64,000 nucleotides of DNA from a virus: the IMG/VR virus record IMGVR_UViG_3300030103_005357, positions 32,001 through 96,000 of that record; one strand, given 5' to 3'. This document shows, piece by piece, positions 26,793-52,871 of the stretch. Made by a program: the position numbers and the translations under genes. Position 1 is the first letter of the stretch. Every line of letters starts with the position of its first letter. Below the pieces are notes generated by a model. It ran no database searches. It saw only the letters and a list, made by a program, of their open reading frames with translations, and had not been told where the DNA came from.

Positions 26793-26801
26793 TTTAAAAA
26801 C

Positions 26802-27419: not shown

Positions 27420-27422
27420 ATT

Positions 27423-27656: not shown

Positions 27657-27732
27657 AGATTAAAAATGGATACTGAAGCGCTCGCTTTATTAATCGCACT
27701 TATTGCAATGTTAGTATTGCTCATTCAATGTT

Positions 27733-36509: not shown

Positions 36510-37412
36510 ATGTTTGAAAAACTTGTAGGCCAGAGTGAAGTCAAGGGTCGCCTTGGCTTCTACGCCAAAGCTCACAAGGCTGGCTCTATCATTCCACCCA
36601 TCATGCTCAACGGAGCTAAAGGTTTGGGTAAGACTGAGTTCGCAAAGGAATTTGCTAGCGGAATCGAAAGAAAACTTCTTGAGATTAACTGCGGGACGAT
36701 CCGCAATGCTCAACAGTTTTTTGAACAGGTCTTCATGCCAGCTATCGCTGGAGAGGAGATTACTGTTCTTTTCGATGAGTGCCATGCCTTACCTAAAGAT
36801 TTGGTTGAAGTGTTCTTGACGGTATTCAATAGCGAGGGAGCTAAGAGTAAGCAGGTTTCTATTGGAGAAGGCTTCGCTACATTCGACTTCGTAAAGCAGA
36901 ATTTCTTGTTTGCTACTACTGAACTCCACAAGATCTTCGATCCACTTAAGGATCGCATGACTATTGTAGATTTCAAGCCTTATGTCTCCAAGGAGCTTGC
37001 TCATATCATTCAGAAGAAGATTGATTGGGTTCAGTTCGACGGGGATGTTCTTGAGCAGATCGCTGAAACGGTTCGTGGCAATGCCCGTAGCGCAATCAAA
37101 AGAGCTTTGGAAATCAAAGCATTCTGCGAGATCAATAACAATCCAAAGGTGGACGCTAAAGCTTGGCTCCAAATGAAACAAATCTTGGGTATCAAACCAC
37201 ATGGTCTAACCAACCTTGAAGTCCAGATCCTTGACGTTCTCAAATCCAACGGCCCTAGCTCTCTCCAGATGCTATCGGCTGTTACTGGGATGTCCCGCTC
37301 TGCCATCCAGCTTGATGCAGAAAACAACCTCCTTCGTAGCGGGTTCATGGAGATCGATGGTAAACGTAAGATCACAAACAAGGGGACAAAGATGTTGAAG
37401 GAGTTAGCATGA
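36510..37412 (+). CDS. ruvB: RuvB-like Holliday junction branch-migration ATPase
   Basis: LVGQ, GAKGLGKT, FDECH, ATTE...PLKDR, RGNAR and a C-terminal winged helix. Confidence 0.75.
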   Translation: MFEKLVGQSEVKGRLGFYAKAHKAGSIIPPIMLNGAKGLGKTEFAKEFASGIERKLLEINCGTIRNAQQFFEQVFMPAIAGEEITVLFDECHALPKDLVEVFLTVFNSEGAKSKQVSIGEGFATFDFVKQNFLFATTELHKIFDPLKDRMTIVDFKPYVSKELAHIIQKKIDWVQFDGDVLEQIAETVRGNARSAIKRALEIKAFCEINNNPKVDAKAWLQMKQILGIKPHGLTNLEVQILDVLKSNGPSSLQMLSAVTGMSRSAIQLDAENNLLRSGFMEIDGKRKITNKGTKMLKELA

Positions 37413-37780: not shown

Positions 37781-38319
37781 TAGTCGGGGCTGTGATATAT
37801 AATATTGTTCATTTGTAATTACAAAATTCTTTTGTTTGTTACATATTGTAGTGTCGGACACTAAAACCACAACATATAGTATAGTTTTAGGTCCATATAC
37901 CTACTGCACCAATCCCCTCCCATCGTCGCCTATCCCCCATACCTACAACATAAACTACACAACATACTAAGTAAAGATATAAGGGAGAATAATAGAGGAA
38001 AGACTGGAGGAATGGGTGTTCAAATACTGGATGTGGATTACCCTTTTTAATTAAATAAAAATAATATAAATTCCACACACAATAGTTTTCCTTGATTCTA
38101 AAGGATTTGCGGCCCTTTTGTTTGACGTAGCTGCCGCAGTGAGGTTGGTCTTTTTACTTCGCTTCAGTAAACCCAAACAAAAAAAATTATAAAAAAAGTC
38201 AATTTCTGCACGGGGGTAAATACAAAAAGTTTTTAAAAGTTTTACCTCACTGCACCAGCCACGTTAAAAAACAATAAAAAAAGTGCAGGTCGGGTGACAT
38301 TTCGCAAATAATAGGTAGG

Positions 38320-38459
38320 CCCAGATCGAAAGAGAGCGCCCAAATAATGCAGCGCCCCGAATAAACAAAATCAAAATCAAATAATGCCCAGATCTAATCA
38401 AACGGCGTAAATAATGTGATTGCCCAGATCGAACAAAACAAACTAAATAAACCCAGATC
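38320..38459 (+). repeat. four CCCAGATC direct repeats in an A-rich non-coding region
   Basis: Copies at 38320, 38387, 38423 and 38452, interleaved with AAATAA(T). Confidence 0.7.
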
Positions 38460-38538
38460 AAATAAAACACCCCAAATAAGTGTGTGGTTAGCGGGGGCGA
38501 CCACGTTCGACGATATCCGATTGTATCCGATTATCTCT

Positions 38539-38615
38539 GTAAGTCATTGAGTAGTAGGGAGTTACGGCGATCCGCGCCAGCGTCCTCCGTAACTCGCTGA
38601 CAACCAACGAGTTAC
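38539..38615. repeat. 77-bp double-palindrome element, copy 1 (core orientation F)
   Basis: GTAAGTCATTGAGTAGTAGGGAGTTAC-GGCGATCCGCGCCAGCGTCCTCC-GTAACTCGCTGACAACCAACGAGTTAC. Confidence 0.92.
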
Positions 38616-38629
38616 GAGGATTTTATTTT

Positions 38630-38926
38630 TTAATTAAAAGATTCTAGAGCTTCTATAGCATCTTGGAATGTGATGTAAGTATTGTTTTCTATATTGTGTT
38701 GATTCACCCCTTCAGACCATTCGGCATATTCTGGCGTTACTTCCGTATAGGGTAGCCCTTCGAAAAAATCGTCGAATTTTTTCCACCCCATCATTCTGTG
38801 TTCTTTACCACTCAACTGAGTAGCTGCCTTTGCTGCTAGTCAATTGATGCCACAATCAAGGTCTAGTTTTGCGTCTGGGTTTTGAGTTTTTGCGAACTCC
38901 AACAGTTGTTTGTTTGTTATTGTCAT
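38630..38926 (-). CDS. 98-codon ORF with one in-frame TGA at codon 29 (recoded gene or pseudogene)
   Basis: MTITNKQLLEFAKTQNPDAKLDLDCGIN*LAAKAATQLSGKEHR... is in frame with ORF 38630-38815. Confidence 0.6.
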
Positions 38927-38940
38927 TTGCTTGTATTTTT

Positions 38941-39210
38941 TTAATCGATTAAGAATGTACCACCTCCAAACATCCCCTCTTGAGATTTAGCCTCTGCCTT
39001 CAAGATCATTACAGCCCTCAAGTCGCGACCATCTTTTGTTGCAGGGCGAAAATCCAAAATCTTTTCTATTTGTTCCAGCTTCTGCCTGTCTCCAGTGATC
39101 GACAATCCATCAATCGTCTTGAAGATTCCCGCAGCTTTTAGAAACAGTGGGATTTCGTCTGGAGCTTCTTTTTTTAGTTTTTTAATTCGTTCGTGCATCA
39201 TGGTATCCAT
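38941..39210 (-). CDS. hypothetical protein
   Basis: Cassette 1 ORF. Confidence 0.55.
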   Translation of the reverse strand: MDTMMHERIKKLKKEAPDEIPLFLKAAGIFKTIDGLSITGDRQKLEQIEKILDFRPATKDGRDLRAVMILKAEAKSQEGMFGGGTFLID

Positions 39211-39436
39211 TTAGTGAGTTTTGTATGTAGTCTCTAATCTCGATGAACCACTCATCAGATAAATCCATTTGATCACAAAGGTCTTCTGGTATTGAGGCGC
39301 AAGCTATTTTAGCCATCTCTAAGATGGTGACATCATATAACCAGCTTCGTCTGATTTTGGAAAGCTCGGGACCAGAGGGTCTGATCGGAAACGCCTCTGA
39401 GACGGTTTGGTACTGCTTTGGTTCTTCTTTTTTCAT
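39182..39436 (-). CDS. hypothetical protein
   Basis: Cassette 1 ORF. Confidence 0.55.
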   Translation of the reverse strand: MKKEEPKQYQTVSEAFPIRPSGPELSKIRRSWLYDVTILEMAKIACASIPEDLCDQMDLSDEWFIEIRDYIQNSLNGYHDARTN

Positions 39437-39440
39437 AGTA

Positions 39441-39788
39441 TTATAGATTGCTGTATTTTTCCATCAACTCAACTTGAACGTGCTTGTTCCAGATGCTGTG
39501 CATAAGGTCGAACCAACCACCTCCACGTTCAGCTTCACCTACGGAAGAAGGGAAGACCGTTCTAAACTCCTCCATCATGGTATCTAGTTGAGATTCAAAT
39601 TGAACCTGCTCAGGGCTAGCCTCCTCTTTCAACCCATCAACTAACTTTACAGCTTCATCAACCGTTATTAGCTCGCTCCCGTCGCCATTGTAAATGTTCT
39701 TCAGATCATTGGTCTCCATGTAGGATCGGAGTAGAGCATCTAGGAGTCTCTTTGTGCTTACTTGTTTTTTACTTACGTGTTTTTTCAT
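39441..39788 (-). CDS. hypothetical protein, first gene of cassette 1
   Basis: TTGACG-17-TATGTT upstream of ATG 39788. Confidence 0.6.
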   Translation of the reverse strand: MKKHVSKKQVSTKRLLDALLRSYMETNDLKNIYNGDGSELITVDEAVKLVDGLKEEASPEQVQFESQLDTMMEEFRTVFPSSVGEAERGGGWFDLMHSIWNKHVQVELMEKYSNL

Positions 39789-39852
39789 GTCTGAGGGAAA
39801 CATACCATGAAGCGGAAGGGCCGTCAAATTTAAATTAATTAAAAATTCAGAC

Positions 39853-39929
39853 GTAAGCCACTGATTAGCAAGGAGTTACGGCGAACGCCCCCGCCGCCGC
39901 CCGTAACCCGTTGATAGTCAACGAGTTAC
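39853..39929. repeat. 77-bp element, copy 2 (core F)
   Basis: GTAAGCCACTGATTAGCAAGGAGTTAC-GGCGAACGCCCCCGCCGCCGCCC-GTAACCCGTTGATAGTCAACGAGTTAC. Confidence 0.95.
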
Positions 39930-39938
39930 GAGGGTTTT

Positions 39939-40121
39939 TTATTTGGCAGATTTCATTTCTTCTTTTCGCTTTTTCCTATCGCCAAACCAACCAACATCTG
40001 GCGCTTGCATATTTCTGCGTCGCCAAAAATCGTGATAGGCTTTATTGAATTCTTCTCTAAAACCCCTTTTTAAAGTGGCGTATCTGTTTGCTTCTGAGAA
40101 GTCTGGTTTTATTGGTTCCAT
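39939..40121 (-). CDS. hypothetical protein
   Basis: Stop codon 10 bp from element 2. Confidence 0.5.
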   Translation of the reverse strand: MEPIKPDFSEANRYATLKRGFREEFNKAYHDFWRRRNMQAPDVGWFGDRKKRKEEMKSAK

Positions 40122-40232
40122 GTTTTTATCTTTCTGTTCTGTCTATTCTTTCTCTTCTTACTAAAAGTATCAATCCGATAATGATCGTTGCCCAAAACCA
40201 AAATCCCAACCTTGCTAGTAATTTTATCAAAT

Positions 40233-40937
40233 TCATGCTGGCTCCACTACAAAACCCGTTTCATCTTTTTTTGCAAGACCTTTCTCAACTAATCCAACGA
40301 TCACGCCCTTTTTATCTTTAAAGCGGAGGTCATTCTCATCACCATCGACGACGGGAAAACCAAGATAAGTTTTAGGAAGTGAACCACGGAAAACAACCGC
40401 GACATTCCCGCCTAGCGAAAGAATCTTTTTTATTCTGTCATCGCTAGTCTCTTCACTGCGGGAAAAGGTCAGGTGGTAGTTTTTAGGCATCTTGCCATCA
40501 AGCCATTTTCTCATTCTATAAAATCCCTTGGTGTAATCATAAAAATTTACCTCTGGAAACTCTTCGATCACACTTGTCTTGCTCCCCTTCTTCATATTCT
40601 CCCAAGGAATATCACTTGTCAGATTGAGACGGAAACAAGGAGTGAGATTTTTTCTCGCGGCACTTTTGATAGCCTTTCCTATTTCAATTCTAAGATCCGA
40701 CATGAAACCGAAGTTATCTTTAAAGAACCTCCGCGTTTTAGCGATTCTAGAATTTTGCACGTTGGACATACAACCGCGCCCCGCTGTATCTAAACAAGCT
40801 GCACGACATCCTGCGCTTGCCCATTGGCAAACGTTAAATCCTGATTTAGTAGCAGGGGAAAGATGGAGACCGAACGTGCGGAATCCAACCTTTTCACCCT
40901 TAAGGGTTTTGGCGTTGCCTGAGTTAAGTAGTTTCAT
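40233..40937 (-). CDS. Gp88-like Cys-cluster (radical-SAM-related) phage protein
   Basis: C..AS.GC.A.CL..AGRG, RLN..SD, FYDYTK, YHLTFS.SE and DGDE.DLRF. Confidence 0.75.
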   Translation of the reverse strand: MKLLNSGNAKTLKGEKVGFRTFGLHLSPATKSGFNVCQWASAGCRAACLDTAGRGCMSNVQNSRIAKTRRFFKDNFGFMSDLRIEIGKAIKSAARKNLTPCFRLNLTSDIPWENMKKGSKTSVIEEFPEVNFYDYTKGFYRMRKWLDGKMPKNYHLTFSRSEETSDDRIKKILSLGGNVAVVFRGSLPKTYLGFPVVDGDENDLRFKDKKGVIVGLVEKGLAKKDETGFVVEPA

Positions 40938-40939
40938 AA

Positions 40940-41290
40940 TTACCACCAGCAAGAATAAAAAACTTTGTCCCCCTCATCGATAGCCTTTAGACCGTCCTTG
41001 ATAAAGTCGAGATCCTTCTCTTTTCTCCACTCGTCTTGACTGCTGTCAGCACCATAAAAGAAACCCATAGTTACTGGTAGTTTTCCAGCCTCAACCACTG
41101 CCCACAGACTTTCTAAATCCTCGGCAGTCAATTGCATGACTTCACAATTCAAATCGTTGGCTGGCTTTCCCGTTTTGAGAGTCCAGAGTTTTTCCATCCA
41201 GCCTTGCAAGGCGTTGTGCTTTCTCCAAGAGGCGAGTTCTACATCCTCTCCGTTGGAGTCCTGTCTATGTGCATATTGGTCTAATCCCAT
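40940..41290 (-). CDS. conserved phage hypothetical protein
   Basis: MGLDQYA...WRKHN.L.GW...Y..WW; own promoter. Confidence 0.7.
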   Translation of the reverse strand: MGLDQYAHRQDSNGEDVELASWRKHNALQGWMEKLWTLKTGKPANDLNCEVMQLTAEDLESLWAVVEAGKLPVTMGFFYGADSSQDEWRKEKDLDFIKDGLKAIDEGDKVFYSCWW

Positions 41291-41401
41291 AACGAAAGTA
41301 TTTTGACAGGATGTTTCCTGAGAGACAAGAGTTTTTTTGATTTTTTATTATTTTAATTTGCGCTTGCACTCTTAGTTTTTTGTGATATGGAAACAATCCT
41401 T

Positions 41402-41478
41402 GTAACTCACTGATTGATAAGGAGTTACGGGGCGCGGCGGGGCGGTTCGCCGTAACTCGCTGGTAGTCAACGAGTTAC
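41402..41478. repeat. 77-bp element, copy 3 (core reversed, R)
   Basis: GTAACTCACTGATTGATAAGGAGTTAC-GGGGCGCGGCGGGGCGGTTCGCC-GTAACTCGCTGGTAGTCAACGAGTTAC. Confidence 0.95.
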
Positions 41479-41485
41479 GGAGTTT

Positions 41486-42589
41486 TTACTTAATGATTTT
41501 TTTACGATAGTTCTCTTCTATGCATTCCGATGTGAAAGAATCGAGCCATCCGTTTGCCGTGTCTATGTCGCGATTAAGAGCGTAAACAGGAGTCCCATCC
41601 TCATGGCTGATGTGAATTTCCAAATGCCCATCGCAATCACCTGCGACGGTGTGGCGTTGACCATTTAAGTGTACGGTCCATTTTTTAATCTTCATCTGGC
41701 AATGGCTCAAAGGGAGCAAATGGTTCTTTCCCATATTCAAGGAAGTGCATATGCTGCTTTGCATATTGATAGACCTTGTTCATGGCTTCCTTCACTTCTT
41801 CTCTTTCTTGATAAGCTTTATCCCAAGCCTCATCGCCTAGAGGGTAGTAATCTCTCTGATGGAAGGTTGTATCAAAAAGCAATTTAATTTGCGCCTCGCT
41901 TACTGCTTCAAACAATTCATTGTATTGTTTGCGTAGGCTGTCTTCTCCCGATCCATTCATATGGATGCAGGGCATTGTGTGTTCTTTAATCATGATTTTA
42001 ATTCTTTTTTTCTTTCGTATTCAACCATCTCCTCATCGATTCTAAAAGAGTCACCGATATAACTGCTTTCATCTGGCAATGGCAAGCTGCCATTTTCTGC
42101 GATGTTAACTGCTTCATCCCAAGATTCTGCTTCTACCATCATTGTTCCGTAAACCTCCCATGAGCATGGGACTCCATATGTTTTTTTCATAATCTTTCTG
42201 AATCATACCGTCGGATCAAAACAAAACCCAACTCTTTAAGTGCTTCTATGTCGCTAATTGTTAAAGTTTTTCTTCCTGTTAGTTTCCTTATAGAGTTCCT
42301 AACAGATTCTTCTTTTACATAAGTAAGTTCATTACCCCAAACTTCTTTTCTTATTACTTCTATTGTCATGGTTTTAGCTTTCGCGGTGAATTTGTGTAAA
42401 GCCTAGCTTATCAAACACTTCTGATAGTTCAATCGCACCGTGTGTAGAGATAGGGATGCGAGTTTTCTTCTTATCAAAATCCCATTCAATGGAATATTCT
42501 AAGCCTTTATAGCCATCCTCTTCCCTTCGGACGCTAAAGGTCTTGTTGAAGTGTCCTGTCAATTTAATGGTTGGTGTTTCGTTGTTCAT
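41486..42589 (-). other. operon of five small hypothetical genes (41486-41695, 41685-41993, 41990-42190, 42187-42369, 42374-42589)
   Basis: Tightly coupled ORFs with overlapping stop and start codons. Confidence 0.6.
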
Positions 42590-42593
42590 AGTT

Positions 42594-42950
42594 TTATTCT
42601 GCGAAAATTACATAACCGTGCTTGTTGCCGCGAATCACAACAATTTCAGCTTCATGGATAGGATTGTTGCGCTCATCAATAAAGGTCTTAGCCTTATAAG
42701 GGTTGTAGGTTACAGAAGCATTAGGAACTTTCGAGTAAGTGATTTGATTAAGCTCCTCGCCTACAATTACAGCATGGACATTTTTTCTTTGTTCTTTTAA
42801 AACCCGCTGACGACCAGCTTCGGAGACTTTGAACTTGGCATTTTTAACAATGCACTGCTCTGCATGGCGAACTACTCTCCACGCACCATCAACTTTTTCT
42901 TGAATGCTTAGGCATCGCTTGTGGCGGTTGTAGTAAACTTTGATTTCCAT
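42594..42950 (-). CDS. conserved phage hypothetical protein
   Basis: VYYN.HK..LS, FKVSEAGRQRVLKE.RKNVHA and YNPYK motifs; own promoter. Confidence 0.7.
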   Translation of the reverse strand: MEIKVYYNRHKRCLSIQEKVDGAWRVVRHAEQCIVKNAKFKVSEAGRQRVLKEQRKNVHAVIVGEELNQITYSKVPNASVTYNPYKAKTFIDERNNPIHEAEIVVIRGNKHGYVIFAE

Positions 42951-43023
42951 AACGAGGGTATTTTGACAGAATTTGATTTTAAGACAAGCCTTTTTTAATG
43001 TTTTTAATTAAAAAAAAATCTTC

Positions 43024-43100
43024 ATAAGTCACTGAACGATAGTGAGTTACGGCGAACGGACCCGCCGCCGCCCGTAACTCCTTGATACTCAATGACTTAC
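43024..43100. repeat. 77-bp element, copy 4 (core F)
   Basis: ATAAGTCACTGAACGATAGTGAGTTAC-GGCGAACGGACCCGCCGCCGCCC-GTAACTCCTTGATACTCAATGACTTAC. Confidence 0.95.
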
Positions 43101-43123
43101 AGCGTTTTTTATTTCTGCAAGAG

Positions 43124-43157
43124 AAAACCCCGCCCCCCATGCAGAGGGGACGGGGTT
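43124..43157 (-). terminator. intrinsic terminator for - strand transcription
   Basis: AAAACCCCGCCCCC...GGGGGACGGGGTT hairpin with T tract on the - strand. Confidence 0.65.
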
Positions 43158-43326
43158 AGCTATCGACCACGATGAAAATTAAAAGGCCATCTTAAGAAGA
43201 TGCACAACGCCGATAAAGGAGATTAGCCCTGACAAAAGCAGAATGCAAGTAAAAACTACATTCTCGAAAAAAGTTCTATCCTGTTCTTTCATGATAAGAA
43301 GCCCCCCTCGCGGGGGGCGTTATAGG

Positions 43327-44082
43327 TTAGGCAGACAAAACAACTGCGGAAGCGCGATCCTCTTCAGTGATAACTGGGTTTGCCACCCTATCAAAGATTG
43401 ATTGCATACGCATGGTGCGGTCAGACAACTTGGAAAGGTCGCTACCCTTGAGATTCTCGGTGACAGAATTGTAGAGAGTCCAGAGAGAGCCGCCCTTGAA
43501 TTCTTCATGGCGAGGGTTGCGGAACTCCTCAACTGCTTTGTAGATATCACGGGCGGGAAACGCTTTGGAATCGACAAGCTCGACAATCAAGTCAGAGGCA
43601 GACTCGACTTCAGTTTGCTGGTAAGACTCAATGCGCTTCGCCATGTCAGACCAATGATCTTTGACCTTGGCAACGGCAGAAGAAAGCACACGGGGAAGAT
43701 CTGACAGAATGTTAGTGGTATGACGGCGAGCCAGCTTCACATCAGAAGAGAAGCAAAGATTTTCACAAACCATCATTTGATTGCCAGCAGCAATAGAAGC
43801 AGCAAAAGATTTGTCGTGAGCATTGCGAAGGCCCAAGACGATCTTGCGATCCTCTCCAGAAATGTCCTTACCCTTGAGGGCAAAGCCTCCGAAGTAACGA
43901 AGGCCACCACGGGCAAGAGCATGCTCTTCCTCGGAGACTTCAAACCCAGCGCGACCAATGGCATCGCGGGTCATATCCACCAACTTGCGGTGAGGGATTG
44001 GGGTATGGGTTGCGGTTGCTTCTGGGGTTTGGACTCCAGAAAGGGCTTCGGCATCAATTTTGTTTTTAGCGTAGATAAGCAT
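43327..44082 (-). CDS. DUF932/DUF945-family phage/plasmid protein
   Basis: LGLRNAHDKS, VCENL, RHT and LWTLYN.VTE; TTGTGC-17-CATACT before ATG 44082. Confidence 0.75.
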   Translation of the reverse strand: MLIYAKNKIDAEALSGVQTPEATATHTPIPHRKLVDMTRDAIGRAGFEVSEEEHALARGGLRYFGGFALKGKDISGEDRKIVLGLRNAHDKSFAASIAAGNQMMVCENLCFSSDVKLARRHTTNILSDLPRVLSSAVAKVKDHWSDMAKRIESYQQTEVESASDLIVELVDSKAFPARDIYKAVEEFRNPRHEEFKGGSLWTLYNSVTENLKGSDLSKLSDRTMRMQSIFDRVANPVITEEDRASAVVLSA

Positions 44083-44220
44083 AACGGCAGGAGTATGACC
44101 TAAAAAAACACTTTGCACAACAACTAATTGAACAAAAATGAAAATAATTTGTAGGTCAGAATATTTTGCGGAAATAAATATTGACATACCCCCCAGCCTT
44201 ATGATAGAGAGAAAACCTCC

Positions 44221-44297
44221 GTAACTCACTACTACTCAACGAGTTACGGGCCACCGAGGGGCGCTTCGCCGTAACTTACTGATTGTCAATGAGTTAC
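44221..44297. repeat. 77-bp element, copy 5 (core R)
   Basis: GTAACTCACTACTACTCAACGAGTTAC-GGGCCACCGAGGGGCGCTTCGCC-GTAACTTACTGATTGTCAATGAGTTAC. Confidence 0.95.
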
Positions 44298-44386
44298 GAT
44301 GGTTTTACAGTAACTCCTAAAAAAACAAAAAAAACCCCTCCCACTGTCTAGAAAAGCGGGAGAGGTTTGGATAGTCAACCTTTCGA

Positions 44387-44593
44387 TTAACTAAGAGCAA
44401 ACTTTTCGTTTAATGCGGAAACGTGCTTGCGTGTCCACTTCACATTATCCACGAAGTTTTCAAACTTATCATCTTGGACATCACCCATTCTTTCGGCTAG
44501 GTGTTGATGAACGAGACGCAAAGCATATTCAAGCATGATAGCCTGATCTTGGTTTCTCACTTCGATACGGACGGATTCAGTTGATTTAGGCAT
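44387..44593 (-). CDS. hypothetical protein
   Basis: TTGACA-17-TAAAGT-6-ATG. Confidence 0.6.
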   Translation of the reverse strand: MPKSTESVRIEVRNQDQAIMLEYALRLVHQHLAERMGDVQDDKFENFVDNVKWTRKHVSALNEKFALS

Positions 44594-44637
44594 AATTTGA
44601 CTTTAGTTTATAGTTTCTTATCTGTCAAGTAAAAAGA

Positions 44638-45651
44638 TTACTTGTTGTGCAGCTTGTTGTGCAGCTTGTGCATATCGAAGAAGAGTCTCTGCCAGCAGTT
44701 AGCTTTCCTGCCCGATACCGCTTTGATACCTTTTGACTCATATTTCAAAACCGCAAAGTGAAACTGAGTAAAAGTTTTTAGTTTGTCTTTTCTCGGATGA
44801 TTGCCCCCAATGCTCCAAACACCATTCTTGATGATTTTTTTGATGAGATCGATATCATACAGCCCTCCCAATCCTCTATCCTTGATAGAGTCTAGTAGAA
44901 ACTGTGGCAATCCAGACCACATTTGCATTCCAAATTTCTTTTGGTCTGCTATCTCCTTACTGAATACGTGATCAATGATGACAACTGTGTCATTCATTAC
45001 TTTCTTGATGATAGCAGCCCTTTCTTTTGGGACTAGCAATCTATTTTTTAACACTCCATTGATGGCAGCTAGGATCTGCCCATGAAAAGACGCAACATTA
45101 GCACCAAGATCAAGAGCTTTCTCTTTGGTCGGATTCAACGGATTGTAACCAAGTTTTTTGAAAAGTTTGATTATACCATGAATGTTATCAGGATCACTTT
45201 CTTTGAGTCTAGTGATTGCCTTAGCCTTAGCCCAAAAGCGAGCATTCACTTCCCATTGGCTTTTTGTTCTTGGGTCGTTAGCTCGCAAGCATCTTGTGAT
45301 TGATGCTAGCGTATTGACGACCCTGCAATCAATAACATCATAAGGGGAAGCGCAAATTCTATGCTGACCATCAGTAATCTGAGGATAGTATTTGCCTTTA
45401 TGTTTGTGCAGATAGATGTTGGGCAAATCGCAATCGTCATCATCCCAATTGTTTTTGATGTTCTCAATCTGACTCTTGTTCAATGCTCTTTGGAAGCTCT
45501 CATCGATTCCAATATTTTCTTTTTTGATTTGCGCTATCTTATAGATCCCCACCTTTTTAATCTGTGGAGCCTTAGATAGAGGCTTTGCGTTTAGACCGTA
45601 GTCTGTTACTGCTTTATGCGTGTTCTGATAGAACTTAGTTTTATTACTCAT
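44638..45651 (-). CDS. ParB/Srx N-terminal-domain protein
   Basis: IDESFQR.L and ITDGQHR motifs. Confidence 0.65.
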   Translation of the reverse strand: MSNKTKFYQNTHKAVTDYGLNAKPLSKAPQIKKVGIYKIAQIKKENIGIDESFQRALNKSQIENIKNNWDDDDCDLPNIYLHKHKGKYYPQITDGQHRICASPYDVIDCRVVNTLASITRCLRANDPRTKSQWEVNARFWAKAKAITRLKESDPDNIHGIIKLFKKLGYNPLNPTKEKALDLGANVASFHGQILAAINGVLKNRLLVPKERAAIIKKVMNDTVVIIDHVFSKEIADQKKFGMQMWSGLPQFLLDSIKDRGLGGLYDIDLIKKIIKNGVWSIGGNHPRKDKLKTFTQFHFAVLKYESKGIKAVSGRKANCWQRLFFDMHKLHNKLHNK

Positions 45652-45841
45652 AACGTTTTTAGTTTCTTGTTCTTTGGTTGATGCCCCCGAATCAGTAGTT
45701 CATCAGCGACAGAGAGAGTCTAACTGGATTTAGTTTATATGCAAGATTTTTTATTAATTTAAAATGCAGCTCAGAGTATTTCGCGCCAAATATCTCTTGA
45801 GACAATCCACCACCCCAAAAACATAGTTACAAAAAAACCCC

Positions 45842-45918
45842 GTAAGTCACTGATAATCAACGACTTACGGGCGGCGGCGGGGCGCTTCCCCGTAACTCGC
45901 TGATTACCAACAAGTTAC
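45842..45918. repeat. 77-bp element, copy 6 (core R)
   Basis: GTAAGTCACTGATAATCAACGACTTAC-GGGCGGCGGCGGGGCGCTTCCCC-GTAACTCGCTGATTACCAACAAGTTAC. Confidence 0.95.
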
Positions 45919-45928
45919 GAGGCTTTTC

Positions 45929-46183
45929 CTACTTAGTAGGATCGTCGCAAGCAGGGCCGACATCCCCATCGCGCCCCTCAGAGTGAAAAAAGTCTCCGTC
46001 ACACTCGCACAACCACCAGCGCGAGCGCCTGACCTTCCCCCGCTTACCAGCCCAGTCGGGGCCACAAGCATCCTCCCAAGCTTCCTCGGGGGAGGTTCCG
46101 AAACCTTGATTCAACAGCTGAAGCCCAAAAGGGCAGGACTGCTTTTTAGAACGGACAACATAGTGTTTAGTAGTGCTGGACAT
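45929..46183 (-). CDS. hypothetical protein
   Basis: TTGCTA-17-TATTCT-6-ATG. Confidence 0.55.
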   Translation of the reverse strand: MSSTTKHYVVRSKKQSCPFGLQLLNQGFGTSPEEAWEDACGPDWAGKRGKVRRSRWWLCECDGDFFHSEGRDGDVGPACDDPTK

Positions 46184-46237
46184 GGGAGTAGAATAAACAG
46201 AAAATGCGATACTAGCAAGACATTTTAAAATCTTTTT

Positions 46238-46477
46238 TTATTCTGCGTCGAGGTGATTTTGAAGAGCTTGCGCGTCTGCGGGTGACAGGCCATCCTCATC
46301 AGAAGACCATTCGGGATTGCGGTCGCCCATGTCGTTGTGGATCTGCGCGAGCAAATCTTGCATTACTTCGTCCGTGGGGTTGAAGTTGCCAGCGCGAGGT
46401 CCATCGTCAAGCATATCGCGCAAGTCAGTTTCATTCATAGGAGGGAGGGTATCAACAATAGGATTTTGAACTGTCAT
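46238..46477 (-). CDS. acidic hypothetical protein
   Basis: TTGACC-17-CATACT-6-ATG; Asp-rich. Confidence 0.6.
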   Translation of the reverse strand: MTVQNPIVDTLPPMNETDLRDMLDDGPRAGNFNPTDEVMQDLLAQIHNDMGDRNPEWSSDEDGLSPADAQALQNHLDAE

Positions 46478-46614
46478 GGCGGGAGTATGGTTCAGAATTT
46501 ATGATGGGTCAACCTATAAAAACATTTTTTTTGATTTTAATGTAGCTCAGGATATTTTTCGCCAAATATCTTATGGGGCAATCCACCCCAGAAACGCAGT
46601 CAGAAGAGAGCTTC

Positions 46615-46691
46615 GTAACTCACTGATACTCAACGAGTTACGGCGAACCGCCCCGCCCCCGCCCGTAACTCCTTGACGCTCAACGAGTTAC
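46615..46691. repeat. 77-bp element, copy 7 (core F)
   Basis: GTAACTCACTGATACTCAACGAGTTAC-GGCGAACCGCCCCGCCCCCGCCC-GTAACTCCTTGACGCTCAACGAGTTAC. Confidence 0.95.
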
Positions 46692-47278
46692 AGCGTTTTA
46701 TCTAACCACAAAGAAACTTCCCATTTTCTCCGACGCTCCAAACCTTTTCGGATTTTTCCCGCTGCCATTCTATATTGAGGCATAACCACCTCAACGCTTT
46801 TATAGTTTCCATTATTGAGTCTATTCTTTTTTTCGCAGACGAGTTTGCGAAGTGAACCTTGACCACAGTTGAAAGTAAAACTTGTGAGTGATGCCAATTG
46901 GTTTTCAGTCAATGGAACTTTTACAATTCTCAACACATGATTTTTTGCGACAAGTAATTCTTCTTCTAACAGTTTTAATGCTTCGGCTTCTGTGATGGTG
47001 TCTCCCCACTTAACATTTTTGGTATGCCCATAGCCGATAGTCATGACTCCACCACTGCAACGATATGCCTCAGACTTAAAACTCTCATATTGTTTTACCC
47101 TATCAAACATTTTATCCCAAGGGGAAACCTCTTTTTTATAAACTCGATTCGGCTTAACAAGCAAAGGGACATTCTCTTGCTTTTCGGCGATCATCGGGAG
47201 GATCTCTATTGGCTCCTCAGTATTTAAGAGGAGATAAACTGATGTGGCTAGTAGTGTGATCATAAAAAGTTTTTTCAT
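46688..47278 (-). CDS. GH24 phage lysozyme with N-terminal membrane anchor
   Basis: E...AY.CSGGVMTIGYGHT, LTSFTFNCG and GLERRR..E; stop codon lies inside element 7. Confidence 0.88.
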   Translation of the reverse strand: MKKLFMITLLATSVYLLLNTEEPIEILPMIAEKQENVPLLVKPNRVYKKEVSPWDKMFDRVKQYESFKSEAYRCSGGVMTIGYGHTKNVKWGDTITEAEALKLLEEELLVAKNHVLRIVKVPLTENQLASLTSFTFNCGQGSLRKLVCEKKNRLNNGNYKSVEVVMPQYRMAAGKIRKGLERRRKWEVSLWLDKTL

Positions 47279-47279
47279 T

Positions 47280-47444
47280 TTATTTATTATCAAAGTGATT
47301 TCTCAACCATCCTTCGACGGCTTCCTTACCAAACCGATTATGTAAACGGCGCAGAGTAAAGTGGCTTCTACTTATTACACCATCAACCTCAAGCTCCGCG
47401 ATGTATTCTTGCATGGCTTTTTCGAATTTTTCTTTTTCTGTCAT
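47280..47444 (-). CDS. 54-aa hypothetical protein (MTEKEKFEKAMQEY...), not in the ORF track
   Basis: Hand translation; sits between paralog A and the lysozyme. Confidence 0.55.
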   Translation of the reverse strand: MTEKEKFEKAMQEYIAELEVDGVISRSHFTLRRLHNRFGKEAVEGWLRNHFDNK

Positions 47445-47446
47445 GA

Positions 47447-47590
47447 TTATTTTAATTCCTCCAATTCAACTTTTAACTCTTGGCACTCTTTCTGGAATTG
47501 ACCTGAGACTTCGACGACCCTATCGACCATCTTGTCCCAATTTTCTTCTGCTTTTGCCATCGCTGCCAATGCTTCTTCTGTCGCTGTCAT
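47447..47590 (-). CDS. 47-aa helical protein, paralog A (MTATEEALAAMAKAEENWDKMVDR...)
   Basis: TTGACC-16-TATACT-6-ATG; near-identical N-terminus to 50108-50275. Confidence 0.75.
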   Translation of the reverse strand: MTATEEALAAMAKAEENWDKMVDRVVEVSGQFQKECQELKVELEELK

Positions 47591-47662
47591 GTGGGAAGTA
47601 TATCAGAAAATGTGATGAGGTCAACCCCTAAACGCACTTTTTTAATTTATTTTTAGGGAAAT

Positions 47663-47801
47663 TGGTCGCTCTAAAAGGACTTGCACCTTTATCTTTCTCG
47701 CCCGAACCATTGGGGTTGCGGTGACTTTCTCGCCGAGATTATCATCGAGCGTGTTATTGAAGAGGTCGTGGAGATTGTCTTGCTTGTTAGACTATAGAGC
47801 T
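47663..47801 (-). ncRNA. tRNA-like RNA with a 71-nt structured insert in place of the anticodon loop
   Basis: GCTCTA/TAGAGC acceptor plus ACCA, GTCT/AGAC D stem, AAAGG-TGCAAGT-CCTTT T arm; own TTGTCC-17-TATAAT promoter. Confidence 0.7.
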
Positions 47802-47857
47802 TTCTTACGGGGGAGATTATAAGTGATTTGGGGGATGGGGACAAGCCCTTTTTTAAT

Positions 47858-48070
47858 TTATTTTTCTATGCGTGAGAAGTAGAGAGTTCTGAAAACTTCC
47901 TTGTTACCGCTCTCGCTGTCGTGGCTTTTGTCAACTACCTTGCAAACTGCGAACTCCTTAGTTGAACGCTCAACCCCGCGAAGTTGATACATGCGGAGAT
48001 TTCCATTGTTGGAGGTGGTATAAACAAACTGCTTATTGATCAGGCGGGTGATGTTGTCTTGGTTGGTCAT
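47858..48070 (-). CDS. small beta-rich protein with FRTL motif
   Basis: TAAAAT-6-ATG; similar to 48702-49055. Confidence 0.65.
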   Translation of the reverse strand: MTNQDNITRLINKQFVYTTSNNGNLRMYQLRGVERSTKEFAVCKVVDKSHDSESGNKEVFRTLYFSRIEK

Positions 48071-48187
48071 GTGGATATTTTACTCTAAAAACGCAGAGAT
48101 TAAAAGCTTTTTCTGCATCTTTTTTTATTTATTTTTTTAAGTAAAAGGCTTGACACTATTCTTCTTTACTATAAAGAAACATCCTTC

Positions 48188-48264
48188 GTAAGTCCTTGAT
48201 ACTCAACGAGTTACGGGCCAGCGACCCGCCGCGCCCCGTAACTCCTTGATACTCAGTGAGTTAC
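48188..48264. repeat. 77-bp element, copy 8 (core F)
   Basis: GTAAGTCCTTGATACTCAACGAGTTAC-GGGCCAGCGACCCGCCGCGCCCC-GTAACTCCTTGATACTCAGTGAGTTAC. Confidence 0.95.
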
Positions 48265-48323
48265 GACGGTTTTCTTATTAGCTGTTTTCTCGCGGCTGTC
48301 AACACAAAAGATTAATTTAATTC

Positions 48324-48347
48324 AAAAAAAAGCTCCCTTTCGGGAGC
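48324..48347 (-). terminator. intrinsic terminator
   Basis: GCTCCC-GAAA-GGGAGC followed by a T run on the - strand. Confidence 0.75.
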
Positions 48348-48361
48348 CTTGCACGGGGTGG

Positions 48362-48595
48362 TTAGTCTTGCCAGTCTCGCGCTCGATCCTCCGCGCCTTG
48401 CGCCATGTATGTCCGAGCGTCCTCCAATCCGTCCTTGTAGGCGAACGCCCATATCTCATATGATTCCTCTCCATTCGGAAACTCATCGGGTATGATATAG
48501 CCAAGGTAGGAGGTGGGGCAGATGTTACTCTCCTGATTGTTGAGTGCTGCCTTGTATGCGAATTCTGCGAGCTGGTCTTGTGTTACTGTTGCCAT
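48362..48595 (-). CDS. hypothetical protein
   Basis: TTGTGT-17-TATAAT-6-ATG at 48595. Confidence 0.6.
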   Translation of the reverse strand: MATVTQDQLAEFAYKAALNNQESNICPTSYLGYIIPDEFPNGEESYEIWAFAYKDGLEDARTYMAQGAEDRARDWQD

Positions 48596-48701
48596 GCCGA
48601 GATTATACTCTCGAAAAGAATTAAACACAAGATCTTTTTGCATAAAAACACAAAAAAACCCGCCAGCCTCCGAAGAGACTGACGGGCGACACACAACACC
48701 A

Positions 48702-49055
48702 TTAGAAAACTGATTTGGCTAGCTGGTAAGCGGTCGCCACGCGACCCTTCACCTTGGTAATTCCCGAAACATGCAGAGTGCGGAACTTAGTCTTGCCTCC
48801 ATCGTCGAGGTCTTGCACCTCTCCTTGGATGTAACGGCGACCCGAACCTTTGGCGTGATCGGTGTGATCAACTGACTTGATAACGAAACTACGAACGCCG
48901 TCATTTTTGACAGAGGATTCGTCGTGGTTGTAGTAAGTCACCACGCGATTGGTGAGCTTTTTCTTAAGGTCTTCGTCGCTGAGTCCATACAGGGCGTGGT
49001 CGAACTTGTAGTTGATGCCGACATTGGTGGTGGTAGTGGTAGTGGTGTTTTTCAT
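48702..49055 (-). CDS. beta-rich protein with FRTL motif
   Basis: TTGCGC-17-TATAAT-9-ATG at 49055. Confidence 0.65.
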   Translation of the reverse strand: MKNTTTTTTTNVGINYKFDHALYGLSDEDLKKKLTNRVVTYYNHDESSVKNDGVRSFVIKSVDHTDHAKGSGRRYIQGEVQDLDDGGKTKFRTLHVSGITKVKGRVATAYQLAKSVF

Positions 49056-49064
49056 AACGAGGTA

Positions 49065-49093
49065 ATTATACTCTAGATTTTGGTTGGGCGCAA
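49065..49093 (-). promoter_or_regulatory. representative sigma70-type promoter of the cassette region
   Basis: TTGCGC-N17-TATAAT; similar promoters precede many genes in 39.8-50.7 kb. Confidence 0.75.
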
Positions 49094-49122
49094 GAACTAT
49101 TTTGCTATTAAAGTGATTTTTT

Positions 49123-49368
49123 TTAGAGGTAGGAGGCGACAGAAACAAGGGCTTCGACCTCTGCTCTTTTGGCTGCGCGTTTAGCTGCGCGGATATCGAG
49201 GAGAGCTTTCGCTGCTTGCTCGCGGGTGATAGCTTGGAACTTGTAGCGACTCCAGTTCTGATTTTTAACGGAGACATGCAAGTAGGTCATGCCAGTACGG
49301 TAGACTGAGAGAATGAGATGCTTGGTCTTATAGGTGCGGAACTTTGGTGATGTAGTGGTGTCGGACAT
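49123..49368 (-). CDS. hypothetical protein
   Basis: TATAAT-6-ATG at 49368. Confidence 0.6.
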   Translation of the reverse strand: MSDTTTSPKFRTYKTKHLILSVYRTGMTYLHVSVKNQNWSRYKFQAITREQAAKALLDIRAAKRAAKRAEVEALVSVASYL

Positions 49369-49485
49369 GGGGATATTATAAACGGAAATCTCACAAAAGA
49401 AAAGCTTTTTCTGCATAAAAAAGAAACTTTTTTTTCGATTAAAAGTGTTGACACGATGGCTTGTTTTGGTATGGGAAAAACCTTC

Positions 49486-49562
49486 GTAAGTCGTTGATAC
49501 TCAGTGAGTTACGGGCGGCGGCGGGGCGCTTCGCCGTAACTCGTTGATACTCAGTGAGTTAC
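49486..49562. repeat. 77-bp element, copy 9 (core R)
   Basis: GTAAGTCGTTGATACTCAGTGAGTTAC-GGGCGGCGGCGGGGCGCTTCGCC-GTAACTCGTTGATACTCAGTGAGTTAC. Confidence 0.95.
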
Positions 49563-49610
49563 AGCGATTCTTTTCATAACATAAAAACTCAACGTGTCAA
49601 GTATTTTTTT

Positions 49611-49676
49611 TGGTGGATGGCGGGGGGATCGAACCCCCATCCGAGACTCGCATCCCGTCGAAACCATTGGCCACCC
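49611..49676 (-). ncRNA. minimal tmRNA-like RNA (tRNA-like domain only)
   Basis: GGGTGGC-CAATGGTTTCGAC-GGGAT-GCGA-GTCTC-GGAT-GGGGG-TTCGATC-CCCCC-GCCATCC-A-CCA; G3:U70 pair, no D stem. Confidence 0.8.
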
Positions 49677-50107: not shown

Positions 50108-50275
50108 CTACTTGTTTTCTTTTTTAAGGTCAAGGAACCATTCCTCTTGTTCTTTCTGGAACTCTTGGCATTCCCTGATGAACTGCTCTCCGACTTCGAC
50201 GGTTCTGTCCACCATCTTGTTCCAATTTTCTTCGGCTTTGGCCATTGCTGCTAGTGCTTCTTCGGTTGCTGTCAT
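50108..50275 (-). CDS. 55-aa helical protein, paralog B (MTATEEALAAMAKAEENWNKMVDR...)
   Basis: TTGTAT-17-TAGAAT-6-ATG; not in the ORF track. Confidence 0.75.
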   Translation of the reverse strand: MTATEEALAAMAKAEENWNKMVDRTVEVGEQFIRECQEFQKEQEEWFLDLKKENK

Positions 50276-50339
50276 GTGTGAATTCTACTTTATTTTTCTA
50301 AGTGATACAAGCTCTTTTCGTATAAAAAGAAAACTTTTT

Positions 50340-50630
50340 TTAACGCTCCGTTAAAGGTCTCCAATCGAAACGACCGCAAGCGATCTCAAGACCGCGCCCC
50401 CATTTAGAGGCGTAAGCCTCCGCACGGTTAGCAAACTTCTCGACACGCTTGGGCTTTCCCTCGGGGAAGGCGAAACGGTTGTTGAGAATGCGCTCAGTCT
50501 TTTTGAGGTTGCTACTTCCACCCCAAGCAAACTCTTCACCGTTCCACTCACGGATTGCCGTGGAAGATTTGGAGATGATGACATAGAACGGGATTTCGCT
50601 TTCTTTTTTGATGGTGTTGTTTGTTTCCAT
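50340..50630 (-). CDS. hypothetical protein, first gene of the - strand block
   Basis: TAAAAT-6-ATG. Confidence 0.6.
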   Translation of the reverse strand: METNNTIKKESEIPFYVIISKSSTAIREWNGEEFAWGGSSNLKKTERILNNRFAFPEGKPKRVEKFANRAEAYASKWGRGLEIACGRFDWRPLTER

Positions 50631-50929
50631 GCGTGTATTTTAGCACAGATCCGCATGAATTAAAAGCTTTTTTTACCTCAATAGTGCTTTTTTTTTGACC
50701 TGTAATACAACCCCCCGATTAATATAAAAAACACTTGACACGATACCGCGCAAAGTCGCGGGGGGAGTCTTTTCTCAAAAACTAAACAATTAAATTATCA
50801 TAGTTAGGCGTTGGATGGAAAAAAATAGCGGGGTTATTTTGGGGGAAAGTGCATGCCCAAGAAAGACCAGAATAAAAAAATAAATTAATATGCCGCGAAT
50901 ATAATATACAAAAACGTGTAGTATAAGGT

Positions 50930-51766
50930 ATGACATATCGGAATATGCCAGTGGCAGTGGATACAGGTAATCCTATTTTGGCGACGACGGTTGGAGTGGA
51001 TTTCTCCACTAAAAATCAGATAAAAAGACAATTGGGCGCGAATATCGACGCTGGTGATCAGTTGAGGTTTAATGGTGATGTGGATTGTAAGATAAATGCG
51101 GATTTCTTAGTGAAGAGTAGTGCGGGTGATTATTCGGGTATAGATTTTTTATTTGATAGTTATCATGAAACTGGGCAGAATTCTATGACGTTGGATATTG
51201 GGGGTAATAAATACAACTCTTGTTTTATTGATAGTTTCAGTTTGACGGTTAGACCATTTGAGCCAGTGATGGGGCGGGTTACGTTTACTAGTTATCAGCC
51301 TAGCGATTCAGGTTTGGCTGGTAACACAGGTAATGCATCAGATAGCCACCTAGAAACACAAGAAGTAATCTACGGACACAATTGTTTATTGAGTGGTGCG
51401 GGTGCTGTGGTAGCTTCTGATATCATAAATGATCTTAGTTATAATAAAACATATTCAAGAACTCCAATTTATACTTTAGGTTCGCAACAGGCGACAAGTC
51501 AAATTGTTGACGGTGTAGAGGTCGATATGAATGTCCAGTCTACAGGATTGAACCAGTTGATTGATTTCAGCGGTAATAAATTATCTAGTGATTTTGGCAT
51601 TGGGCTAAAAGATGTTCTCGGCTCTGGAATAATCCAATATCCTTATAATGAATCTAATTTTGATTTAATTGTAAATTCTGGAGCGCATGTAGTTGCGGAA
51701 GGCTACTCCGTTGATGGAGGCGGCACTTTAGTTACAAAAGCTACCATTAAGGAAGTCATTCTATAG
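50930..51766 (+). CDS. probable structural (tail tube-like) protein
   Basis: Beta-rich duplicated architecture; GTGTAG-N8-ATG upstream. Confidence 0.45.
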   Translation: MTYRNMPVAVDTGNPILATTVGVDFSTKNQIKRQLGANIDAGDQLRFNGDVDCKINADFLVKSSAGDYSGIDFLFDSYHETGQNSMTLDIGGNKYNSCFIDSFSLTVRPFEPVMGRVTFTSYQPSDSGLAGNTGNASDSHLETQEVIYGHNCLLSGAGAVVASDIINDLSYNKTYSRTPIYTLGSQQATSQIVDGVEVDMNVQSTGLNQLIDFSGNKLSSDFGIGLKDVLGSGIIQYPYNESNFDLIVNSGAHVVAEGYSVDGGGTLVTKATIKEVIL

Positions 51767-52547: not shown

Positions 52548-52871
52548 ATGAGTCACATATTTTGTTATAGTTGTGGGGTTAAGATTGAATATAATTTTGC
52601 TAAACCTAATTTTTGTTCTAAATGTGGGGCAAGTTTTGGAGGGACGCAGCAATCTCAAGCTGCGGTGGAACAGGTTTCCAATCAAACCAAATCCTCTGTA
52701 GTTTCAGATGACGAAACCGACGCAGAGTTCGTCCCACAACTGCGGGGATTGCAGGTAGAAATTGAAAAGCCTAAAACTGTCACCATTGGTTCTTTAGCGG
52801 GTCAAAACACACCACCTGACTATAAAGGAAAGGGATCGTATGACCTGAATGATTTCACTTCTAAACCTTAA
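52548..52871 (+). CDS. zinc-ribbon protein
   Basis: CYSCG...PNFCSKCG. Confidence 0.7.
   Translation: MSHIFCYSCGVKIEYNFAKPNFCSKCGASFGGTQQSQAAVEQVSNQTKSSVVSDDETDAEFVPQLRGLQVEIEKPKTVTIGSLAGQNTPPDYKGKGSYDLNDFTSKP

Follow-up and report, generated by a model that had tools for sequence, protein, structure and literature searches.

The 64,000-nucleotide stretch of DNA analyzed here (the window; positions 32,001 to 96,000 of the IMG/VR virus record IMGVR_UViG_3300030103_005357) carries nine copies of a 77-bp unit in which two 27-bp palindromes flank a GC-rich spacer. This repeat family is real, widespread and precisely built, and it is not the new site-specific shuffling system that an earlier note, made from the sequence alone, had proposed. 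Our preferred explanation, held tentatively and with slightly less than even confidence, is that the units are paired operator or insulator sites for a dimeric protein, and that they also serve as substrates for homologous recombination in the manner of the PeSL cassettes of T4-type phages (Arbiol et al. 2010, PMC2839356; Comeau et al. 2014, PMC4122927). The earlier note's alternative, operators that are paired and bound by a protein, fits the conservation pattern better than recombination sites do. In function the units are closest to multi-copy phage operators or stoperators, while in evolutionary behavior they are closest to PeSLs.

Architecture and conservation of the units

A repeat finder returned one nine-member family in the window, with neighboring copies spaced 773-1622 bp apart, and all nine lie inside a 38.5-50.7 kb block of small minus-strand genes. 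The layout of 27-bp palindrome, 23-bp spacer and 27-bp palindrome aligned without gaps in 9/9 copies, and the 2 boxes of a unit are phased 50 bp apart, start to start. A scan with the 27-mer consensus allowing up to 3 mismatches recovered 17 of the 18 boxes, with no match elsewhere in the 64 kb, and 100 shuffled sequences gave 0 matches. With one repeat family, no matches in shuffles and a gap-free alignment, the nine copies, their starting points and their invariant 27+23+27 geometry stand as first described, and so do the left-hand A tract and right-hand T tract, which occupy fixed flank positions. The lysozyme open reading frame (ORF; 46688-47293, minus strand) does, as had been claimed, take its stop from the TAA of GTAAC in the right box of copy 7. 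The copies, none of which was assigned a strand, are as follows.

38539..38615, element copy 1, by repeat finder, consensus scan and gap-free alignment
39853..39929, element copy 2, by repeat finder, consensus scan and gap-free alignment
41402..41478, element copy 3, with a weak inward promoter-like site (TTGCAC) on its left flank
43024..43100, element copy 4, with the spacer inverted in the orthologous copies of loci L062 and L054
44221..44297, element copy 5, by repeat finder, consensus scan and gap-free alignment
45842..45918, element copy 6, missing from relative L006, in which the stretch from copy 5 to copy 7 is replaced
46615..46691, element copy 7, with the lysozyme stop codon (46688-46690, minus) within its right box
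48188..48264, element copy 8, with inward promoters on both flanks
49486..49562, element copy 9, with inward promoters on both flanks

Relatives were sought in IMG/VR with an inner 35-bp pattern (GAGTTACGG, 19 nt, CCGTAAC), which matched 67 loci. From these, 183 copies were extracted, and once duplicates and fragments were dropped 129 distinct complete units were left, in about 60 viral contigs. Spacer length is the same in 180 of the 183 copies, and spacer sequence is variable. The element-bearing contigs share the backbone genes PhoH, zinc-ribbon protein, sigma-like protein, ERCC4-type nuclease, GP88, DUF932 and AAA+ protein, which indicates that they form one clade. Its members have diverged down to 65-70% DNA identity, and the half-site is unchanged across these lineages. 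A 104-kb record (94% complete) has 5 copies and a 95.6-kb record (86% complete) has 8, each set clustered in about 5 kb, and across the relatives the units always cluster in the leftward small-gene region. The earlier note had called for searches of related phage contigs and PVC host genomes; the pattern search gave a rich yield among viral contigs and very little in bacteria: 596 Gb of bacterial genomes produced 58 pattern matches, of which the true elements were 2, both on phage contigs of this clade binned into metagenome-assembled genomes (MAGs). One MAG is Flavobacteriaceae and the other Verrucomicrobiales, which belong to different phyla. These results do not support an origin of the motif in host genomes.

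The clade has no known cultured relatives. Against about 50,000 isolated phage genomes, neither the array (megablast) nor a large neighboring protein (tblastn) gave a match, and the large terminase matches solely phages of Bacillus, Clostridium and Lactococcus, with about 22% identity. In the library of papers searched, the motifs did not appear in any relevant context. The units therefore constitute a sharply defined, undescribed repeat family common to a whole clade of marine phages that are abundant, uncultured and about 100 kb or more in genome size.

The half-site consensus among the distinct units is GTAAsTC-ry-TGA. T2 is kept in 126-127 of the 129, and A3, A4, T10, A18, T24, T25 and A26 in 128-129, so that variation at these positions is absent or minimal. 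The inner arms, on the spacer side, are almost unchanged among units, and the outer arms tolerate C or G at position 5. Positions 8/9 and 19/20 vary yet are R-Y in every half-site. Around the boxes lies a symmetric outer frame consisting of an A tract (-15 to -6), C at -4, pyrimidines at -3 to -1, purines at +1 to +3, G at +4 and a T tract (+6 to +11). On the gene-sense strand the central triplet of a box is GTA in most copies and AAA in another lineage; the complements are rare, with TAC in 6 downstream boxes and TTT in 2 upstream boxes.

The spacer is asymmetric, its C-rich strand reading roughly GG-s-s-AA-CG-CCCCGCC-...-CCC, and its 2 orientations are about equally frequent. Between orthologous units with 85-95% flank identity, the spacer is inverted in 12 of 69 pairs with the orientation of the boxes unchanged, while at flank identities of at least 95% no inversion was seen in 41 pairs. 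A conserved GC-rich spacer that can invert rules out reading the unit as a CRISPR mini-array of 27-nt repeats and a 23-nt spacer.

Folded as RNA, the units reach -32 to -54 kcal/mol (z -3.3 to -6.3 versus shuffles), a stability that follows from the consensus being palindromic. No compensatory changes were found among the 129 distinct units. At variable positions the Watson-Crick, G-U and A-C partner combinations are near random, both for the long left-right hairpin and for the self-fold of a single box. Corrected mutual information peaks at neighboring positions and at the same position of the 2 boxes, where the letter is identical, and this analysis showed no antiparallel pairs. Left-right complementarity is lower within units (20.36/31) than between units (21.80/31) in 2000 of 2000 permutations, and self-pairing and the 4-bp flank pairs likewise fall below the between-unit level. 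On the strand that would be transcribed from the promoters described below, the G-U count equals the A-C count and the folding energy equals that of the opposite strand. The units conserve sequence, and base pairing is not under selection. This fits a symmetric, sequence-specific protein reading double-stranded DNA, and it misfits an RNA hairpin or a single-stranded DNA hairpin.

The pairing data bear directly on the possibility that the units are bidirectional intrinsic terminators insulating the leaderless early transcription units, with their similarity arising from duplication and gene conversion, which we regard as unlikely. Such terminators would account for the A and T tracts and their fixed placement beside the unit, and the layout expected of them is present, namely a stable hairpin with T at +6 to +11 on both sides when read outwards. 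Two downstream boxes scored as terminator-like in a consensus terminator scan, the lysozyme gene ends within copy 7 and has no other terminator, and dense terminators would be sensible where read-through is useless to leaderless genes. The selected pairing expected of an intrinsic terminator is lacking, though, in the search for compensatory changes, in the permutations and in the G-U versus A-C comparison. The stem base at the T tract is A/U-rich and often mismatched, with position 5/73 mismatched in 80 of 129 units, and a terminator requires neither the fixed spacer length nor half-site conservation at 65-70% DNA identity. Copies 4, 5 and 8 are already preceded by canonical GC-rich intrinsic terminators of their own, 25-65 nt upstream in gene sense, which implies that the unit is not merely a cassette terminator. 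Two of these were mapped.

43126..43157, minus strand, canonical intrinsic terminator upstream (gene sense) of copy 4, separate from the unit
48329..48350, minus strand, canonical intrinsic terminator upstream of copy 8 and of its right inward promoter, separate from the unit

Inward promoters and candidate binding proteins

When each of the 255 flanks is read towards its unit, 47 have TTGAC beginning at -38, and every other offset occurs 7 times or fewer. The 41 distinct flanks of this type carry a sigma-70-type promoter and share an AT-rich upstream (UP) region, a -35 hexamer, 16 nt, TA (98%), n-n-G-r, an A run and C at -4. The hexamer is TTGACA in 35 of them and TTGACT or TTGACG in 6, and the 16-nt spacers are mutually unrelated in sequence. 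With the -35 at -38 and TA at -16/-15 from the unit edge, the distance between promoter and unit is fixed. The -10 box (TAnnGr) keeps its TA but never has T at -7, a combination with a perfect -35 that makes this promoter class an oddity of biochemical interest. The promoters that the phage uses for its genes are ordinary, with a canonical -10 box that mostly lies 6-9 nt ahead of the start codon. In the window the inward type occurs beside copies 8 and 9 on both sides, left of copy 5 and weakly at copy 3, and practically nowhere else.

44181..44210, plus strand, inward promoter-like site left of copy 5 (TTGACA and a TA-containing -10-like box; antisense to the genes)
48150..48177, plus strand, inward promoter left of copy 8 (TTGACA at 48150-48155, 16 nt, TAAAGA)
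48275..48302, minus strand, inward promoter right of copy 8 (TTGACA at 48302-48297, 16 nt, TAATAA)
49448..49475, plus strand, inward promoter left of copy 9 (TTGACA, 16 nt, TATGGG)
49573..49600, minus strand, inward promoter right of copy 9 (TTGACA, 16 nt, TATGAA; immediately behind the mini-tmRNA gene)

The next cassette's promoter had been placed just left of each copy, and this did not hold up: the sites at copies 5, 8 and 9, and weakly 3, lie on the plus strand and point into the element. The promoters of leaderless genes sit about 60-100 nt further left than these promoter-like sites. An outward promoter that would use the outer arm as its -35 was rejected, its -35 being poor and its -10 base pairs being shared with a far better inward promoter. 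Across the family an inward promoter is present at about a third of units, and about 60% of units have none. Among gene-oriented units it lies more often on the downstream side, firing antisense (21), than on the upstream side (13), and 10 of these units have it on both; with all units and a slightly narrower offset window, both sides are occupied in 13. The predicted start is about 4 nt before the unit, and the T tract is met just past it.

Two observations on promoters stand apart from the units. A repeated leaderless-gene promoter module (48062-48118, 48587-48643, 49360-49416 and 50622-50678, minus strand) consists of a conserved TGCAGAAAAAGCTTTT box, about 19 nt, a TATAAT-like box and an ATG 6 nt on. 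It is a second repeat family and could be a recombination substrate too. In one lineage (loci L024, L055, L057 and L063; e.g., L057:10229) there are many half units, in which a T-run and TTGACA are fused to the inner arm GTTACGG in place of the left box while the spacer and right box are retained; in other lineages TTGACA is just 2-13 nt from a box.

We infer protein binding, cooperativity and a roadblock function along the following lines. Each unit would be a pair of dyad-symmetric sites read as double-stranded DNA through the half-site, the dyads being held exactly 50 bp apart such that the length of the spacer matters and its orientation does not. A candidate conserved dimeric protein, from phage or host, would bind both boxes cooperatively. 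Once bound, it would shut the inward promoters and block RNA polymerase passing from one cassette to the next, making the unit a protein-dependent insulator or "stoperator". The inward promoter looks strong apart from its crippled -10, and the nearer box would span about +4 to +30 of the transcript. The hairpin and U-tract of the palindromes possibly add factor-independent termination. Together with their promoter flanks, the units form dispersed repeats of about 80-150 bp, between which ordinary homologous recombination deletes, inserts or swaps cassettes as a side effect. The units are found only in the block of small, individually promoted, mostly leaderless early genes. The combination of operator pair, A/T tracts and inward promoters would be a compact natural module, and a model for how early units with leaderless genes and one promoter per gene can be separated or silenced.

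Precedents for such an arrangement exist in actinophages. Conserved inverted repeats of phiC31 belong with the multi-copy intergenic operators of this group. Cluster O mycobacteriophages have 17-bp dyad repeats in a leftward operon, which have been read as sites of a dimeric regulator, and the Cluster A stoperators are discussed in the same paper (PMC4351075). Like the present units, the actinophage operators are dyad repeats with a variable 3-bp center in a leftward early operon with leaderless genes, and deletions between copies occur among relatives. They are 13-17 bp long, whereas the boxes here are 27 bp, always paired, with a fixed GC-rich spacer and an A/T-tract frame, and are strictly intergenic with only 5-9 units per genome. 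The cognate protein is known neither for the Cluster O repeats nor for the present units. Of the features that define multi-copy dyad operators, a dyad conserved as sequence and a fixed promoter position are both found, with most units lacking a promoter.

Several observations weigh against operators for a dimeric protein, in addition to the terminator-like layout noted above. The inward promoters seem to transcribe just the unit, which leaves the need for repressing them unexplained. The central triplet holds a single polarity relative to gene direction, for which common descent or an RNA-level role could be responsible, and the conserved CCCCGCC core of the spacer is not accounted for. Pfam found no DNA-binding domain in 20 small early ORFs, and neither Pfam nor PHROGs recognized a cognate binder in the array or its conserved neighbors. 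A ParB-like protein encoded in the array (44638-45651; weak matches to PHROG ParB-like, E 0.0016, and DUF6551, E 0.015) was rejected as the general binder, since five records that bear elements, including the 94% complete one, lack it; the same query found the gene in two other relatives. The sole small protein conserved throughout the array, a 117-aa product of 48705-49055 (minus strand) between copies 8 and 9, is conserved in 36 clade loci and belongs to no Pfam or PHROG family. Its confident model (predicted local distance difference test score, pLDDT, 82) is an Sm/WYL/SH3-like beta barrel with flanking helices, and its structural matches are weak (Foldseek E 0.03; VIA Z 5.9; WYL, Sm/Lsm and Hfq). 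The zinc-ribbon protein (52548-52871, plus strand) was also rejected as the binder, since it consists of a zinc ribbon and an acidic, probably disordered tail, with no helix-turn-helix.

An interesting question is whether the inward promoters instead mark genes for hairpin RNAs of about 90 nt, with a role as regulator, processing signal or decoy in which the Sm-like protein may take part. We consider this distinctly improbable. The predicted start just ahead of the unit and the T tract right after it are those of a small RNA gene, the predicted RNA bears the G-rich version of the spacer in 23 of 32 cases with a single-sided promoter, convergent promoters at the 13 two-sided units would give fully complementary RNA pairs, and the conserved barrel protein is encoded inside the array. 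What speaks against it is that about 60% of units would have no promoter to make such an RNA, that there is neither covariation nor an excess of G-U over A-C and both strands are equally stable, and that promoter strength is doubtful when -7 is never T. Rfam 15 yielded no family at gathering score for the units, the sole match being a chance-level one of copy 8 to a plant microRNA precursor (28 bits versus a gathering score of 102, E 0.18).

Cassette turnover and comparison with known systems

The stability of the units was assessed in 374 contig pairs in which both 250-bp flanks of a unit are collinear in the other contig. The unit was present in 374/374 comparisons and empty sites numbered 0, and units that are never missing between conserved flanks must be stably kept. 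In 29 of the 374 comparisons, one contig has a single unit where the other has two or three, separated by a cassette. Several of these single units are clean chimeras of the two units that flank the cassette. The intervals in which the chimeras switch are 35-43, 11-31, 48-55, 47-67 and -4 to 8 within the unit, and further ones fall outside it in the promoter flanks, at -45 to -31 and +39 to +46.

The same comparison argues against units that spread as selfish mobile palindromes of the REP/BIME or MITE kind within these phage genomes, an explanation to which we attach almost no probability. The units share with such elements paired imperfect palindromes, an extragenic position, many copies per genome and both spacer orientations. 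The absence of empty sites, the confinement of copies to one genome region, the constant orientation of boxes relative to genes and the failure to find the RAYT/Y1 transposase (PF01797) in six related records all speak against it. REP/BIME of enterobacteria also have a short linker between their palindromes, are located after genes and can terminate or stabilize transcripts; the units differ in occupying one phage genome region, with no RAYT transposase found and no insertion polymorphism.

The earlier note regarded the elements as recombination sites with a tyrosine-recombinase-like core. One part of this survives, in that cassettes are gained and lost through exchange between copies; the part that made them dedicated sites does not, given the variable crossovers. 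Gene-content breakpoints between relatives, which were expected at the elements, mostly lie elsewhere: comparison of the window with its relatives gave 43 distinct homology breakpoints, of which 9 are within 40 bp of a unit, with 4.9 expected at random, and most coincide with borders between genes at a distance from any unit. Genes also differ singly in presence or position with no unit at their borders, as with the gene at 41685-41993, which is moved in relatives. The window ORFs that were scanned include no tyrosine or serine recombinase and no Y1 transposase, in agreement with the remark that no integrase is visible there, and a search beyond the window likewise found no match to PF00589, PF00239 or PF01797 in six related records, two of which are 94% and 86% complete. 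All control genomes matched PF00589. Logan metagenome contigs compared with the region contained joints between elements whose sides were 20-48 letters long and came from repeats or relatives, and these were uninformative; contigs from RNA libraries ended at elements, which is usual for assemblies at repeats. Exchange points that vary, and the failure to detect a recombinase, point to homologous recombination between dispersed repeats as the route of cassette gain and loss, and not to dedicated site-specific shuffling.

Dedicated recombination sites, either attC-like or in the form of a cruciform cut by an ERCC4-type nuclease with a RuvB-like ATPase, would move cassettes and flip the spacer. 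We rate this as very unlikely. It draws on the cassette insertions and deletions bounded by chimeric units, on the in-place spacer inversions and on 2 conserved proteins of the clade. One is an ERCC4-type nuclease with an N-terminal C2H2 zinc finger (54587-55603, plus strand), which adjoins the terminase gene, and the other, adjoining the array, is an AAA+ protein (36510-37412, plus strand) that is RuvB-like or clamp-loader-like and has a C-terminal RuvB-type winged helix. Against such sites are the crossover intervals that vary and partly lie outside the unit, the breakpoints that are mostly elsewhere, the near-complete relatives in which neither a tyrosine or serine recombinase nor a Y1 transposase was found, and cassettes that carry several self-promoted genes. 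Short loop inversions between inverted repeats, moreover, need no dedicated enzyme. A dif/XerCD-like reading was set aside because the boxes lack the TTATG arm that is conserved in such sites. Also improbable, to about the same degree as the hairpin RNA genes, is that the units belong to a phage RNA system of about 90-nt hairpins or complementary pairs with an Sm-like protein, or that palindromes extruded by transcription are cut by the ERCC4 and RuvB-like proteins, giving exchange and flipping without a recombinase.

Integron attC sites and Vibrio VCRs resemble the units in being imperfect palindromes of similar size among co-oriented small genes, with a spacing of about 1 kb and the possibility of a stop codon inside. 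They differ in that here no integrase was found, cassettes are self-promoted and multi-gene, and crossover points vary. The RYYYAAC/GTTRRRY ends of attC are not present, the boxes having GTAAC... and ...GTTAC followed by G/A, with C as the fifth base of the core. No adjacent IntI-type tyrosine recombinase was found by PF00589 in the six related records or the scanned window ORFs, and exchange does not occur at one fixed point. Whereas attC sites keep a folded structure while their sequence varies, the units show the opposite pattern. The integron-like reading thus fails every defining feature tested.

PeSLs are the nearer parallel for cassette turnover. Both they and the units combine a repeated intergenic sigma-70-like promoter and AT-rich upstream region with a stem-loop having runs of G and C, both are concentrated in variable small-gene regions, and in both variable-point recombination between copies leads to small-gene indels and swaps with no dedicated recombinase known. 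The 29 cases of one unit against unit-cassette-unit, with their clean chimeras, are indels of this kind. The promoter and the stem-loop of the composite can both be recognized in the units, but the promoter is directed into the stem-loop and occurs at only about a third of them. The units differ from PeSLs in having no sequence relationship to them and occurring in another phage group, in their strict pair of 27-bp palindromes with 50-bp phasing and sequence conserved across diverged lineages, and in a promoter that aims into the palindrome, where that of PeSLs aims into the next gene. They would represent a second independent case, after T4-type PeSLs, of regulatory repeats driving cassette turnover through ordinary recombination.

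Two other repeats occur in the array region. Directly left of copies 6 and 7 is a 63-nt repeat (45749-45811 and 46525-46587; 76% identical) that holds an inverted repeat of its own. Relative L006 joins at this repeat, which suggests that unit plus flank acts as a single duplicated block. The second is a pair of 148-nt copies, also 76% identical, at 47455-47602 and 50140-50287.

Neighboring genes and other features of the window

Directly downstream of the zinc-ribbon gene is a gene at 52871-53548 (plus strand) with a weak match to sigma-70 region 2 and phage sigma factors (E about 1e-3). Both are conserved in the clade, and their sequences suggest a phage sigma factor with its partner. The AAA+, sigma-like and ERCC4 proteins are conserved neighbors with nucleic-acid-related domains, none of which is tied to the units. 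A further gene that the clade conserves lies at 50930-51766.

The right-hand inward promoter of copy 9 and its A run directly follow the CCA end of a 66-nt tmRNA-like gene (49611-49676, minus strand), which has the tRNA-like domain only and scores 47.6 bits against the Rfam tmRNA gathering score of 47. Four direct repeats of about 30 nt (38318-38479, plus strand; CCCAGATC, about 14 nt, AAATAA) lie in the non-coding DNA that separates the replication genes from copy 1. They resemble iterons, and a replication origin or a further binding array may be located there.

Phage hallmarks of the window include a tail ORF of tape-measure size, a large terminase, lysozyme, PhoH and tRNAs, and homologs of mycobacteriophage L5 gp82 and gp88 are also encoded. 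These homologs, the leaderless genes and the tag-less tmRNA are actinophage-like clues, at odds with the binning into Flavobacteriaceae and Verrucomicrobiales MAGs and with the TTGACA/TATAAT-type promoters. The regions 66-1949, 3844-6872 and 26022-28458 (all plus strand) encode an FtsH-like ATP-dependent protease, glycosyltransferases, a Core-2/I-branching enzyme and a sulfotransferase; the sugar- and sulfate-modifying genes of this set are unusual among phages.

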